Assembly: GCF_017348835.2 (NCBI RefSeq)
Contig: NZ_CP071375.1
Origin: Escherichia coli
Lineage (GTDB): Bacteria > Pseudomonadota > Gammaproteobacteria > Enterobacterales > Enterobacteriaceae
Reading direction: 5' to 3' (one strand)
DNA: 64,000 bases
Of the stretch, positions 52,140 through 61,093 are shown piece after piece. Numbering within the stretch: position 1 is the stretch's first letter; every line of letters starts with the position of its first letter. A program made the position numbers and the translations under genes. The notes below the pieces were generated by a model. That model did no database searches. It was not told the DNA's origin and saw nothing but the letters and a program-made list of their open reading frames with translations.

Positions 52140-53168
52140 TTATGCAGCAACGCCTTCCGGTATCAGCGAAGCAATTTGCTTACGCCATTGCGCTTGCTCC
52201 TGTTCGCCTTCTGTACGTTGACCATAAAGTTGCGCTATCTGCGTACCATCATGGGCAAACAATTCCAGACTGGTTACGTAGCCATCGCTGGTCGGTTTAC
52301 GGGTAACCCAGGCTTCAGCAATGCTCTCTTCTAATAGATGAAGAGTAAACGTCGGGTTGAAAATATTCAGCCAACCTTTCATTGGCACCACTTTTTCTAC
52401 CACACCGGTGAAAATCTGTACGCAGCCACGGTTGCCAACAAACACCATGATTTCATTACCATCCTGCTGTGCAGATTCAAGAATTTGCGCCAACGCACTG
52501 TTGGATACTTTGCAGGCCAAATCGTCCGCCACCAGATTGAACGCCTGTTGGCGCGTCAGGTTGTGGCGCTTGAGCAACGTAAAAAACTGATGAACGTCGG
52601 TCATCGCCCGCCACTCTTGCTCGACCACACTGGCATCGACTCGCGTTTGAACAACTGGCGCATCAACGGCTTTTAACTCAAGCGGCGTATTCTCATCGGT
52701 GATAAACCGTGCCAGAAGCTCACTCCATGCCGCCATATCGGTATTGTCGGTGGCATAAACTTTTAGTAATGCATCGCCCTGATGATCAAAGAACTGAATA
52801 CTTTGGCGTTCGCCACGAGCCGTGTTTTCTTTGATGTGGAAAACACTGGCCCATTGATTGAGAAACAGACGTAAATCCAGCGCGCGTGGATTGAGGATCA
52901 ATCCGGCATGTCCGTTCAAATGCTGGTTTGTGAACGCACCAACTTGCTCATGGACTGCATATTCATTACGGCAAATACATTTGGTCTCGCCAACACTTTC
53001 GAGCGCCGCCAGAATTTCACGGATATCGCCGCGCATCCGCCACGCATCGTGCGTGACGCGTGCAAATGCCAGTTCTGCTTCTCTAATATTCATTAACCCT
53101 GCGATGTCACGCGCGTACTTTCCGGGATTTTGTTCTTTTAACTCAAGCCAGCGTGTGTAGTGGTTCAT
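52140..53168 (-). CDS. chuS: Haem-degrading protein ChuS (HemS/ShuS family), 342 aa
   Basis: 342-aa ORF MNHYTRWLELKEQNPGKYARDIAGLMNIREAELAF; adjacent to chuA. Confidence 0.9.
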   Translation of the reverse strand: MNHYTRWLELKEQNPGKYARDIAGLMNIREAELAFARVTHDAWRMRGDIREILAALESVGETKCICRNEYAVHEQVGAFTNQHLNGHAGLILNPRALDLRLFLNQWASVFHIKENTARGERQSIQFFDHQGDALLKVYATDNTDMAAWSELLARFITDENTPLELKAVDAPVVQTRVDASVVEQEWRAMTDVHQFFTLLKRHNLTRQQAFNLVADDLACKVSNSALAQILESAQQDGNEIMVFVGNRGCVQIFTGVVEKVVPMKGWLNIFNPTFTLHLLEESIAEAWVTRKPTSDGYVTSLELFAHDGTQIAQLYGQRTEGEQEQAQWRKQIASLIPEGVAA

Positions 53169-53216
53169 TGTCTCTCTTCCTTCCAGATAAATGCCCCTAA
53201 ATATCGGGGCAGATGA

Positions 53217-55199
53217 TTACCATTGATAACTCACGAAAATTTTTCCGTTACGACCATCCTGTGGGATGCCTTGCGGCGACCAGTACTCTTTGTCGAAAGC
53301 GTTACCCAACACCAAAGTAGTGGTCATACCTTTGAGCGCCTGTTGTCCTTGATAACTGACGTAGAAATCATTCACGCCATAGCCTGGTTGTTTGCTGTAA
53401 CTGCTGCTGATATGTGTTGAGCGATCGGCAAACGTACCAACCCACCCAACAGAGAAGCCACTGTGAGCGATCGGAATATTCAGGGTGCTGGTAACGGTAT
53501 CCGGGTTAATGCTGGAGATGTATTCGCCGGTATCGGTGTCTTTGCCGCGGGTACGGTTATAGGCCACATCAAGGCTAAACAGATCAGTGGTATATTTCGT
53601 CATCACATCCCAGCCCCAGATTTTGGCGTTCGGGACGTTATACGACATAGTCGTCGCCGCCGCGAAATCGACGGTCGTGGAGATGTAATCCTTCGCTTTG
53701 GTATCAAAGTAGCTGGCTTTAAATTCCAGAGCATCATTGGACAACATCAGGTCATCAAAACGCAGCCCAAAACCGTACTCCTGAGTTTCGTTAGTTTCCG
53801 GACGTAAGTTCGGGTTTGACACCCAATAGTTGGTATAGAAGCGACCAATCGAGAAGTGCTTAGAATCGTTATACATTTCGCCCATCGTCGGGGCGCGGAA
53901 TGCCTGGGCATATGAGCCAAATAACATCAGCCAGTTAGTCGGATTGATAGTCATCCCCGCACGAGATGACCATTTGTCGGCATCAACATCTTTGTAACCG
54001 TCACTGCTACCGCGATAACTGTCATAGCGGGTTCCGCCAAGCAGGGTAATCGGCAGATCGCGTAAGGTGATCTCATCCTGTAGCCAGCCGGAGCTAAAAT
54101 CGATTTTTGCTTGCGGGAAGCCCGTCGTCGCGCCGCCCGGATGTTGTTCCTGACGATAATACTCACCGCCATATGTCAGTAAGTGAGAAGCGAAACTGTC
54201 GGCAAAGAGAGTGGAACGGTTCTCCAGCCTGGCTCCTTTTGTTATCTGTTCACGATACTCGCCGGAACTCCCCGTGTTTTGCGCATTAATACGGACTTCC
54301 GACCAATAAATTTTTGCATCTGCATTTAACCAGTCGTTGCCCTGCGGGGCGAGTTTATAAGAAAGCTGCGCATCGCGTTGAATTGTTGAACGATCAACCA
54401 TCGGGTTGCTGCTTTCAGAAGCCTCAACGGTCTGCGGATTTTTTGGTTCACGCGCGTCGTTGTTGTAGTAACGCACTAAACCGCTCAGAGACTGGGCTGA
54501 ATCAATTTGCCAGGTCCCTTTCGCCAGCATGTTATTAATGGACTCGTCATTCGGCGCGGTTTCACCATTGCTCTGGCGTAAATCACCCCGATCGCGACTG
54601 GACCAGGCCACAATACCATCCAGATTTTCAGTTCGCCCAAACGCGCTCGCGCCTAATCCCAGGCTATGGTCCCCCGTGCCGCCAGTACCAAAGACACGAA
54701 AACCACTGCTTTGTCCTTCCTGCAATAAATCTTTTGCATCGACCGTATCGTAGGAGATCACTCCACCCAGCGCGCCACTGCCATACAGTAATGCTGAAGG
54801 TCCGCGAACAATCTCAACACGCTTGATCAGCGCCGGATCGAGAAAAGTGCCATTCAGGTGTCCGGTATCCGTTCCCTGGCGAACACCATCGATAAGAACC
54901 AGCACGCCGCGATGATCATAGCCACGCATATTTACATCCTGACCGTTGGTTCGTCCGGTACCATCCAGAGTAATTCCAGGAACATGACGCAGCAGATCGG
55001 TGGCTGAAGTAGCCGTTTGATTTTCAGGAGCGGAAGTGTCGATGACGCTGACCATCATAGGCGCTTCGAAGGAACTACGGGCATTCCCCGTTGCCGTAAC
55101 GGTCATGGTTTCAGTAGCAAAAGCAAACGTTGGCAAGGTGGCAGAAACAGCCAAGGCCAATAAACTCAAACGCAACGAGGTAAATTGCGGACGTGACAT
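53217..55199 (-). CDS. chuA: TonB-dependent outer membrane haem receptor ChuA, 660 aa
   Basis: 660-aa ORF with signal peptide, TonB-box region ETMTVTA, FRAP and NPNL haem-receptor motifs, C-terminal aromatic residue. Confidence 0.95.
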   Translation of the reverse strand: MSRPQFTSLRLSLLALAVSATLPTFAFATETMTVTATGNARSSFEAPMMVSVIDTSAPENQTATSATDLLRHVPGITLDGTGRTNGQDVNMRGYDHRGVLVLIDGVRQGTDTGHLNGTFLDPALIKRVEIVRGPSALLYGSGALGGVISYDTVDAKDLLQEGQSSGFRVFGTGGTGDHSLGLGASAFGRTENLDGIVAWSSRDRGDLRQSNGETAPNDESINNMLAKGTWQIDSAQSLSGLVRYYNNDAREPKNPQTVEASESSNPMVDRSTIQRDAQLSYKLAPQGNDWLNADAKIYWSEVRINAQNTGSSGEYREQITKGARLENRSTLFADSFASHLLTYGGEYYRQEQHPGGATTGFPQAKIDFSSGWLQDEITLRDLPITLLGGTRYDSYRGSSDGYKDVDADKWSSRAGMTINPTNWLMLFGSYAQAFRAPTMGEMYNDSKHFSIGRFYTNYWVSNPNLRPETNETQEYGFGLRFDDLMLSNDALEFKASYFDTKAKDYISTTVDFAAATTMSYNVPNAKIWGWDVMTKYTTDLFSLDVAYNRTRGKDTDTGEYISSINPDTVTSTLNIPIAHSGFSVGWVGTFADRSTHISSSYSKQPGYGVNDFYVSYQGQQALKGMTTTLVLGNAFDKEYWSPQGIPQDGRNGKIFVSYQW

Positions 55200-59283: not shown

Positions 59284-59333
59284 TCCCATGCGGCGCAGAC
59301 TCTCCGCGCCGCAACGTCATAACGGAGTTTTGC

Positions 59334-60326
59334 GTGCTCAAGGATTCATTTTCATCCGCCAGGGTCTTTATGGGGCTATCACTATTATTGCTTGCCCTGG
59401 TGCTGTTCGGTGCCAGTCAGGGAGCGTTAAAGATCAGTTTTGATGCCCTTTTTGATGAGGAATACCGCGATATCTGGCTCAATATTCGTCTACCACGGGT
59501 TTTGCTGGCGGTGCTGGTAGGTGCAGCGTTGGCAACCGCAGGGGTAATTATGCAGGGGCTTTTTCGTAACCCAATGGCTGACCCAGGATTACTTGGCGTC
59601 AGTAGCGGTTCTGCATTAATGGTTGGCGTTGCTATTGTGCTGCCCTTCTCCTTCCCAGTGGTTCTGGTGCTCTATGAGCAAATGGTGTTTGCCATTGCCG
59701 GAAGTTTAGTAGTCTGCACCATCATTTTTCTCATCACGCAGCGCCATCGCGATGGCAGCATGATGCAATTATTACTCGCCGGTATCGCCATCAATGCCCT
59801 GTGCGGCGCAGCGATCGGCATCCTGAGCTATATCGGCGATGAGCAGCAGCTACGACAACTCACATTGTGGATGATGGGCAATCTTGGACAGGCGCAATGG
59901 CCGACGTTATTGGTTGCCAGTTCATTCATCCTACCGGCCATTATCGCAACAACTTGTCTCGCCGGAACGCTGAATTTACTGCAGCTCGGTGATGAAGAAG
60001 CCCATTACCTCGGCGTGAACGTTAAGCGTAAACGCCAGCAATTACTGTTAGTGAGCTCACTGCTCGTTGGTGCTGCCGTATCGGTAAGCGGCATTATCGG
60101 CTTTATTGGCCTGGTGATCCCGCATCTGATTCGCATGACTACCGGAGCAAATCACCGCTGGCTAATCCCTTGTTCCGCCCTCGCCGGGGCCTGTTTATTG
60201 CTGATGGCTGACACGCTTGCCCGCACGCTGGTACAGCCAGCAGAAATGCCCGTGGGATTATTAACCAGCCTGCTTGGTGGCCCTTATTTTATGTGGTTGA
60301 TTCTGCGAAATCGGAGGATCACATGA
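59334..60326 (+). CDS. chuU: Haemin ABC transporter permease ChuU, 330 aa
   Basis: 330-aa FecCD-family permease ORF. Confidence 0.9.
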
Positions 60327-61093
60327 TCAGCGCCCAGAATCTGGTTTATAGCCTTCAGGGGCGGCGTCTGACTGATAATGTCTCGCTGACTTTTCCCGGT
60401 GGGGAAATTGTTGCCATTCTCGGCCCTAATGGTGCGGGAAAATCTACGCTGCTTCGCCAGTTAACCGGCTATCTTCAACCTGATAGCGGCGAATGTCGGT
60501 TGTTTAATAAGCCATTAAATGAGTGGTCGATTACTGAACTGGCGAAACACCGGGCCGTGATGCGTCAAAATAGCCACATGGCGTTTCCATTCAGCGTACA
60601 AGAAGTTATCCAGATGGGTCGGCATCCGCATCGTACTGGTAATCAGGATAATGAAACAGCACAAATAATGGCGTTATGTGACTGTCAGGCGTTAGCAAAC
60701 CGCGACTATCGGCAATTATCCGGTGGTGAACAACAGCGCGTGCAATTAGCGCGCCTGCTGGTGCAACTCTGGGAACCTACTCCCTCACCGAAATGGTTAT
60801 TTCTTGATGAACCAACTTCGGCGCTGGATATTCACCATCAGCAGCACTTGTTCCGTTTATTACGCCAGTTAGTTCACGAACGGCAGTTCAATGTTTGCTG
60901 CGTATTGCACGATCTAAATCTTGCCGCGCGTTATGCAGACCGTATTGTATTAATGCAAAAAGGAAAGGTTATCGCAAATGGTAAACCGCAGGACGTATTG
61001 ACACAGCAGGCGCTGACAATGCTCTACGGCGCGGATATTACCGTACTTAAAGATCCTGCCAACCATTCACCACTGATCGTCCTCGATCATTAA
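60323..61093 (+). CDS. chuV: Haemin ABC transporter ATPase ChuV (HmuV), 256 aa
   Basis: ORF track 60293..61093 trimmed to [16 protein letters not shown] (ATGA overlap with chuU); Walker [10 protein letters not shown] and LSGGEQQR. Confidence 0.85.

Follow-up and report, generated by a model that had tools for sequence, protein, structure and literature searches.

The window analysed here, a 64-kb stretch of Escherichia coli DNA (contig NZ_CP071375.1), carries the chromosomal chu locus for haem acquisition and utilisation, the equivalent of the Shigella shu locus. Eight genes make up the locus, with chuS and chuA on the minus strand diverging from chuT, chuW, chuX, chuY, chuU and chuV on the plus strand. 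The layout was read from open reading frames (ORFs) and PGAP annotation, with family or PDB matches for all eight genes (Table 1); the ShuT structure (PDB 2R7A) covers residues 49-304 of ChuT (E = 4e-162). Gene names and starts are those of the PGAP annotation of the E. coli PE164 chromosome (NZ_CP114128.1), from a pig isolate, to which positions 51000-62500 of the window are 100% identical. Identity of at least 98% to characterised proteins suggests that the products transport haem and support growth on it. The locus is bordered by slp and dctR (dctR at 51549-52079) on one side and by yhiD, hdeB, hdeA, hdeD and gadE on the other. We put at about 95% the probability that this region is the chu locus, arranged as two divergent Fur-repressed transcription units.

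The two units share a 682-bp control region. All 64 kb were scanned with the 19-bp Fur consensus GATAATGATAATCATTATC, allowing up to three mismatches and using shuffled sequence as the null. Only two loci were recovered, where 0.01 would be expected from shuffles, and none of 100 shuffles equalled the observed count. Fur box 1 (GATAATGAGAATTATTATC) overlaps the -10 element and start site of chuA, while Fur box 2 (GATAATCATGATCATTCTC) covers the chuT start, such that both operators overlap the promoter core or start. The original prediction, made from the sequence alone, had assigned one Fur box to each divergent promoter, and both boxes indeed fall on published start sites. Its coordinates were accurate to within 3 bp, its interval 55837-55855 being the same site as Fur box 2 centred on the 7-1-7 dyad TGATAATCATGATCA (55839-55853). 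Both boxes are invariant in nine alleles, seven from E. coli and two from divergent Escherichia (~9% divergent), and they remain unchanged while adjacent blocks of the chuA leader drop to 63-70% identity. The next-best Fur-like site in the chu segment has five mismatches and lies at 57874, inside chuW. Scanning species-representative genomes for the exact pattern of Fur box 2 recovered only two Escherichia loci, which served as divergent alleles, and five random matches.

Experimental evidence exists for the second box. In Shigella dysenteriae, the shuT Fur site at +1 to +19 was bound in electrophoretic mobility shift assays (EMSA) with competition, and gfp reporters, tested in wild-type and fur deletion backgrounds, responded both to iron and to the loss of fur (PMC5458455). 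The published oligonucleotides are identical to positions 55840-55893 of the window, so the shuT result transfers base for base, giving a start site at 55840 and an operator at 55840-55858. Fur binding at this site, for which the original prediction had proposed an EMSA, was thus already in the literature on identical sequence. Fur box 1 is the predicted operator of the chuA promoter.

The start sites to which these boxes belong come from published mapping. Differential RNA sequencing in strain Sakai gave a chuA 5′ untranslated region (5′UTR) of 291 nt (PMC9002310); the Sakai leader matches the window at 290 of 291 positions, which maps the chuA start site to 55490. The corresponding promoter, TTGATC-17-AATAAT (-35 at 55527-55522, -10 at 55504-55499), was found by a consensus promoter scan as well. 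The leader ends in a FourU RNA thermometer, a hairpin in which UUUU pairs with GGAG, which reaches the chuA ATG and has a fold z of -2.6; thermometer function has been shown in shuA/chuA (PMC3660397). On the other side, 5′ rapid amplification of cDNA ends (5′-RACE) in S. dysenteriae placed the shuT start site 42 nt upstream of the ATG (PMC5458455). The chuT promoter of the window fits the 36-nt promoter described for shuT and is homologous across genera.

Table 1. Features of the chu region, in window coordinates (strand left as a dot where none applies).
Feature	Position	Strand	Basis or remark
chu island, DNA without counterpart in K-12 (9,059 bp)	52081-61139	.	junction alignment and exact boundary search against MG1655
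chuS, cytoplasmic haem oxygenase / haem-binding protein	52140-53168	-	PGAP; Pfam HemS 273 bits; PDB 4CDP/1U9T E ~1e-230
Stem-loop in the 48-bp chuA-chuS spacer	53192-53211	-	spacer holds no Fur box or promoter-like site
chuA, TonB-dependent haem/haemoglobin outer-membrane receptor	53217-55199	-	NCBIfam TIGR01785 585 bits (cutoff 317); PGAP
FourU RNA thermometer over the chuA Shine-Dalgarno	55197-55228	-	Rfam RF02597 shuA_thermo 60.1 bits (gathering 58)
chuA 5′UTR, 291 nt, invariant blocks and a hypervariable block	55200-55490	-	Sakai start site; variability profile
Fur box 1, predicted chuA operator	55489-55507	.	2 mismatches; spans -17 to +2 of the chuA start site
Predicted FNR box, perfect consensus	55761-55774	.	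centre -72.5 from the chuT start; sole perfect match in 64 kb
chuT promoter, -35 TTGAAT (55804-55809), -10 TATAAC (55828-55833)	55804-55833	+	read from sequence
Fur box 2	55840-55858	+	3 mismatches; +1 to +19 of the chuT transcript
chuT 5′UTR, 42 nt, single weak hairpin	55840-55881	+	5′-RACE and mutagenesis, published as an RNA thermometer (PMC5458455)
chuT/shuT, periplasmic haem-binding protein, 304-aa precursor	55882-56796	+	PGAP; Pfam Peripla_BP_2; PDB 2R7A
chuT codons 1-25, putative signal-peptide relic of a deleted TonB-dependent receptor gene	55882-55956	+	match to Citrobacter receptor
ChuT own signal peptide	55969-56028	+	ancestral ATG missing; TTG 55981 possible alternative start
chuW/hutW, radical-SAM anaerobic haem-degrading methyltransferase	56816-58153	+	NCBIfam TIGR04107 570 bits (cutoff 400)
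chuX/hutX, cytosolic haem carrier	58166-58660	+	NCBIfam TIGR04108 210 bits (cutoff 110)
chuY, anaerobilin reductase	58660-59283	+	PGAP; PDB 5FFQ/5GUY E ~1e-133; Pfam NAD_binding_10
chuU, ABC permease	59334-60326	+	Pfam FecCD 320 bits; PGAP
chuV, haem ABC ATPase	60323-61093	+	NCBIfam NF010068 395 bits (cutoff 261)
11-bp-stem hairpin at the right extremity of island-specific DNA, between convergent chuV and yhiD	61099-61125	.	terminator-like on the yhiD strand

Comparison with characterised systems places the window close to several of them. The S. dysenteriae shu locus (PMC5458455, PMC3660397) has the same eight genes in the same order and divergent layout. Its shuT 5′UTR and first codons are those of the window, as are the Fur site at +1 to +19 and the FourU element, and the ShuT crystal chain differs from the ChuT encoded here at two residues. 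The host here is E. coli, of a pig isolate lineage, and no functional difference from the Shigella locus was found. In O157:H7 (Sakai and EDL933) and O145:H28, chu lies within an enlarged (~22 kb) acid-fitness island at the same insertion point, between dctR (yhiF) and yhiD (PMC9144400, PMC9002310), and is 99.2-99.6% identical to the window, with only a few single-nucleotide differences. Alleles of phylogroup B2, the extraintestinal pathogenic (ExPEC) type, differ markedly: their control region is 89.7% identical, and their chuA leader contains hypervariable blocks.

Junctions with K-12 define the extent of the island. The alignment with K-12 continues past the end of dctR to 52080 and picks up again at 61140, and the island stands where K-12 has 35 bp of dctR-yhiD spacer, these two genes being adjacent in MG1655. 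The interval reported earlier, 52140-61093, is the span of the coding sequences; the island DNA itself is wider. The MG1655 junctions bear out the proposal that chu splits the acid-fitness island between dctR and yhiD, a placement that had already been published (PMC9144400). Among 5,426 complete E. coli genomes, the island is present in 2,234-2,236 (41%) and an intact empty site in 3,179. Every carrier has it on the chromosome at the dctR-yhiD site, never on a plasmid. Carriers include O157:H7, O145:H28, 042 and ST131, together with isolates from stream water and soil. At its ends no integrase or transposase gene, tRNA gene, or direct or inverted repeat was found, and its GC content of 50.2% matches the 50.1% of the window, with no deviant base composition. 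In an Escherichia lineage ~91% identical to the window (locus L011), chu occupies the same site and is collinear across the right junction into yhiD-hdeBA-hdeD, with flanks that are equally diverged.

The N-terminus of ChuT is unusual. Public annotations disagree on where the protein begins: the longest ORF gives 330 aa, PGAP gives 304 aa, and a cluster of 160 member sequences (P0006) gives 271 aa, from TTG 55981. In the solved ShuT structure the first residue of the chain is number 49 of the 304-aa ORF (position 56026), indicating that ~48 residues are removed. Orthologues in Citrobacter, Raoultella, Klebsiella, Kluyvera and Dryocola are shorter (274-279 aa), begin MKKL…, have an ordinary signal peptide of ~20 residues and align with the window protein from residue ~32. 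The segment that precedes this region in E. coli has a counterpart elsewhere. Codons 1-25 of chuT (MPRIITRPFLFSPLTLCISAVASAA) align with the N-terminus of a Citrobacter TonB-dependent receptor, MLPRNNQRPFILSALTLCMSGAAFAA (blastp-short E = 6e-7), and the DNA at 55820-55955 shares 73% identity, in an alignment of 139 nt, with the promoter and 5′ end of that receptor gene (E = 5e-16); the receptor 5′ ends compared were those of loci L017 (1700-1960), L019 and L020. The homology takes in the receptor promoter, Fur box, leader, start codon and first 25 codons, each matched to its chuT counterpart in E. coli. No similarity of this order was seen between this chuT region and ChuA.

In Citrobacter, Raoultella and Dryocola, the chuT orthologue lies 0-2 nt downstream of a gene for a 710-714-aa TonB-dependent receptor, ~31% identical to ChuA. 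The operon reads receptor-chuT-W-X-Y-U-V in Citrobacter and Raoultella and receptor-T-W-X only in Dryocola, beside a MerR-family (cueR-like) regulator gene. The T-W-X-Y-U order in Citrobacter and Raoultella is that of E. coli, with T 81-84% identical. Unlike in E. coli, an intact receptor gene precedes chuT, the chuA-chuS module is missing, the chromosomal site is another one and ChuT starts with MKKL. The promoter in all three genera is homologous to that of chuT, with the Fur box in the same place (three mismatches to consensus upstream of the Citrobacter operon) and an FNR-type site ~80 bp upstream of it. E. coli appears to keep only the promoter, UTR and first 25 codons of the receptor gene, fused in frame to chuT.

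Divergent Escherichia alleles still carry an ATG that belongs to chuT itself. Relative to the alleles at loci L014 and L011, the window, Sakai, 042 and ST131 lack 9 nt between 55973 and 55974. These 9 nt hold the ancestral chuT ATG in the divergent alleles (…SSM or LPM, then KKLF…; …ATG AAA AAA CTG). The signal peptide of ChuT itself reads KRKKLFTAVLALSWAFSVTA in the window. At codon 28, B2 alleles have a different, new ATG in the same frame. Where the receptor deletion ended on its 3′ side could not be mapped, similarity to the last codons of the receptor gene being too weak (6 of 8 nt).

The upstream part of the chuT promoter holds a further, candidate element of this control region. The predicted FNR box is a perfect match to the consensus (TTGATAAAAATCAA); 75 of 20,000 shuffles of the intergenic region contain such a match. 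All 2,236 chu-positive genomes keep the surrounding 56 bp at 95% identity or higher. Across genera the half-sites are retained around a changing 4-nt spacer. Escherichia has TTGAT-AAAA-ATCAA; the homologous promoters read TTGAC-TCAA-ATCAA (Citrobacter), TTGAC-CCAC-ATCAA (Raoultella) and TTGAT-GCAG-ATCAA (Dryocola). The distance from this site to the Fur box is also the same across genera, 80 bp versus 79 bp. Class I FNR-activated promoters carry TTGAT-N4-ATCAA centred near -61.5, -71.5 or -82.5. Measured against these positions, the chuT site is within 1 bp of an activating one and lies on the correct helical face. Thus the chuT promoter resembles class I promoters in its perfect consensus at -72.5, its conserved half-sites and its free spacer, and the FNR role here is a predicted one. 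In the literature searched, we found no report of an FNR box at the chuT promoter and no binding or oxygen-response data for it. An FNR site published for chuA in avian pathogenic E. coli (TTGTAATGTTTCAA) is a different sequence and is absent from the window. The shuT promoter is also active aerobically under iron limitation (PMC5458455), so FNR would modulate the chuT promoter rather than be required for it. If true, the conserved box would tie the anaerobic haem-degradation genes to oxygen sensing.

These comparisons are read most simply as a deletion, in frame, that took the receptor gene out of the Escherichia lineage. Removal of the 710-714-aa receptor would have spared its promoter, Fur operator, leader, start codon and signal-peptide codons, which became joined in frame to chuT. 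The 9-nt deletion would afterwards have cost E. coli proper the ATG of chuT itself, and ChuT would be made with a tandem leader of ~48 residues, the receptor signal peptide followed by its own. We tentatively propose, at somewhat less than even odds, that the chuTWXYUV control region is a remnant of a receptor-TWXYUV operon, complete with tandem leader and an inherited, conserved class I FNR site at -72.5. A fossil receptor signal peptide would explain both the odd double leader of ChuT and the conflicting annotated starts, and no description of one on ChuT was found in the literature searched.

Several other explanations bear on these assignments. The intergenic DNA is AT-rich (38% GC at 55500-55999), and Fur-like sites might arise there by chance; this has a negligible probability, given how few matches the shuffles yield, the exact coincidence of both sites with mapped start sites, their invariance beside UTR blocks that diverge by 30-37%, the published in vitro binding of Fur to the second, and the Fur box retained upstream of the homologous Citrobacter operon and aligned in Dryocola. 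Nor do we favour the view that chu is a mobile pathogenicity island, acquired recently and serving as a marker of pathogenic strains. It draws on the absence of the island from K-12, its presence in O157:H7, O145:H28, ST131 and 042, and the pathogenicity-associated label that chu bears in the literature. The original prediction took this position in part, and the K-12 absence and the O157 and ExPEC presence both stand. A link to pathotype does not: with 41% of complete genomes carrying the island, water and soil isolates among them, chu follows lineage, or phylogroup, rather than pathotype. The bare island ends, the matching GC content and the single site shared by all 2,236 carriers also speak against recent mobility, which we regard as improbable. 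The collinear arrangement in the ~91%-identical Escherichia lineage, flanks included, argues for an old arrangement that was later lost or replaced in some lineages. The chu island is best described as old, lineage-linked and non-mobile; a genome either has it or carries 35 bp in its place.

The chuT start codon admits two further alternatives. Were chuT to begin at TTG 55804, as the frame open from there to 55882 and the 330-aa longest ORF would allow, Fur box 2 would lie inside coding sequence. The ORF list confirms that the box falls within this longest ORF, as originally predicted. That prediction had argued from this overlap for the downstream ATG; its conclusion holds and its argument does not, since an operator can overlap coding DNA. 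The case is made instead by the start site at 55840, mapped by 5′-RACE and reverse transcription PCR on sequence identical to the window, which leaves TTG 55804 outside the mRNA, excludes it as a start and supports ATG 55882. TTG 55804 also forms the first bases of the -35 hexamer, TTGAAT. In Citrobacter, Raoultella and Dryocola the corresponding DNA does not code for protein and belongs to the promoter ahead of the receptor gene, and PGAP places the chuT start at 55882. An upstream start is therefore very improbable. A functional start downstream, at TTG 55981 or GTG 55942, with ATG 55882 opening only a relic leader ORF, is unlikely but carries more weight. The short MKKL… orthologues of the five other genera, the 160-member cluster, the ATG at codon 28 in B2 alleles and the ancestral ATG of divergent Escherichia alleles all point that way. 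On the other side, translational gfp fusions to ATG 55882 with the 42-nt UTR yield GFP (PMC5458455). ATG 55882 and its reading frame are kept in all nine alleles, in which the lone 1-nt indel lies just upstream and the lone downstream indel is the in-frame 9 nt. GTG 55942 is not conserved in L011, neither downstream codon is preceded by a Shine-Dalgarno sequence, and a start at TTG 55981 would give a signal peptide without a charged n-region. Initiation at ATG 55882 is most likely, and TTG 55981 may contribute. N-terminal sequencing of mature ChuT cannot discriminate between these starts because the ~48-residue leader is cleaved off.

Several points weigh against the picture of two Fur-repressed units with the starts and leaders given above. 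Older literature predicted four iron-regulated promoters in chu/shu, and the spacers that precede chuS (48 bp) and chuU (50 bp) hold no Fur-like site with up to six mismatches; extra Fur boxes for these genes were accordingly discarded, and the result fits two transcription units rather than four promoters. The chuA-chuS spacer also has no promoter-like site, and chuAS has been described as bicistronic (PMC9002310). The chuT leader hairpin (-5.8 kcal/mol, z = -0.12) is no more stable than shuffled sequence, so its thermometer role is taken entirely from the published work (PMC5458455). The exact initiation codon of ChuT is unproven, with orthologues of other genera starting ~31 codons further downstream, and existing ChuT and ShuT constructs and N-terminal assignments depend on this unverified codon. 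Finally, start sites and Fur binding are carried over by sequence identity from S. dysenteriae, Sakai and CFT073. Gene content, boundaries, operator sequences with their significance, and identity to experimentally studied alleles were established here; start sites, Fur binding, thermometer function and operon structure come from papers, and we infer that these regulatory results apply to this strain.

With two divergent Fur-repressed units, regulation would proceed as follows. Transcription of chuAS would start at 55490 from TTGATC/AATAAT, and iron-loaded Fur on 55489-55507 would cover the -10 element and start site and block RNA polymerase. The 291-nt leader would end in the FourU thermometer, freeing the ribosome-binding site at 37 °C. 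Transcription of chuTWXYUV would start at 55840, with iron-loaded Fur on 55840-55858 blocking initiation or promoter escape. Its 42-nt leader would act as a second, weaker thermometer, with translation from ATG 55882. ChuA would bring haem across the outer membrane, and ChuT together with ChuUV would carry it into the cytoplasm, where ChuS would degrade it aerobically and ChuW, ChuX and ChuY anaerobically.

Earlier publications already describe the chu/shu locus and its position in the acid-fitness island, report that K-12 lacks it, and cover both Fur-controlled promoters as well as the chuT start. The chu finding restates established biology, and its value is as a positive control for reading sequence alone. 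As leads, the putative relic signal peptide and the predicted FNR box are modest; they are possibly new and could interest those who study haem and iron regulation.

Further observations concern the chuA leader and the control region. The hypervariable block at 55270-55418 (~+73 to +221), 63-70% identical between the E/D-type allele of the window and B2 alleles, lies between invariant blocks. It overlaps the +177 to +217 segment reported as needed for Rho-dependent repression in enterohaemorrhagic E. coli. Leader-based regulation of chuA may differ between phylogroups; chuA itself is a standard phylogrouping marker. In NZ_AP022044.1, a chu-positive genome, matches to the chuA-chuT control region fall in two separate places and a single piece covers only 60%, a pattern suggestive of a chuA leader that has been rearranged or has taken up an insertion. 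No RfaH ops element was detected at up to two mismatches within 55200-55490, and sub-threshold Rfam matches (Hammerhead_HH9, 24 bits versus 52; mir-761; snoRNAs) were dismissed as chance. A small ORF at 55569 (26 aa, preceded by GGGGG) was rejected: it has frameshifting indels and heavy non-synonymous change, and its ATG is lost in divergent alleles. Ahead of this 26-codon ORF, within 55555-55649, the motif AAACAGGGGGTTA is conserved, the ORF itself not being so. On the minus strand, an unannotated 99-aa ORF (55475-55774) overlaps the chuA promoter.

Within the plus-strand unit, the chuV start overlaps the chuU stop (ATGA), and the longest chuV ORF opens at GTG 60293. The 50-bp chuY-chuU spacer (59284-59333) holds a GC-rich hairpin, GCGGCGC…GCGCCGC, and neither a Fur-like nor a promoter-like site. 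This suggests that chuUV has no promoter of its own and that read-through or attenuation operates there instead. The hairpin at the right extremity of the island probably terminates yhiD and perhaps also chuV. Upstream of slp, at 49356-50472, is a low-GC (32-37%) ORF that is a frameshifted hypothetical protein in the identical record. It stands in the position of yhiS, a gene that IS5 interrupts in K-12.

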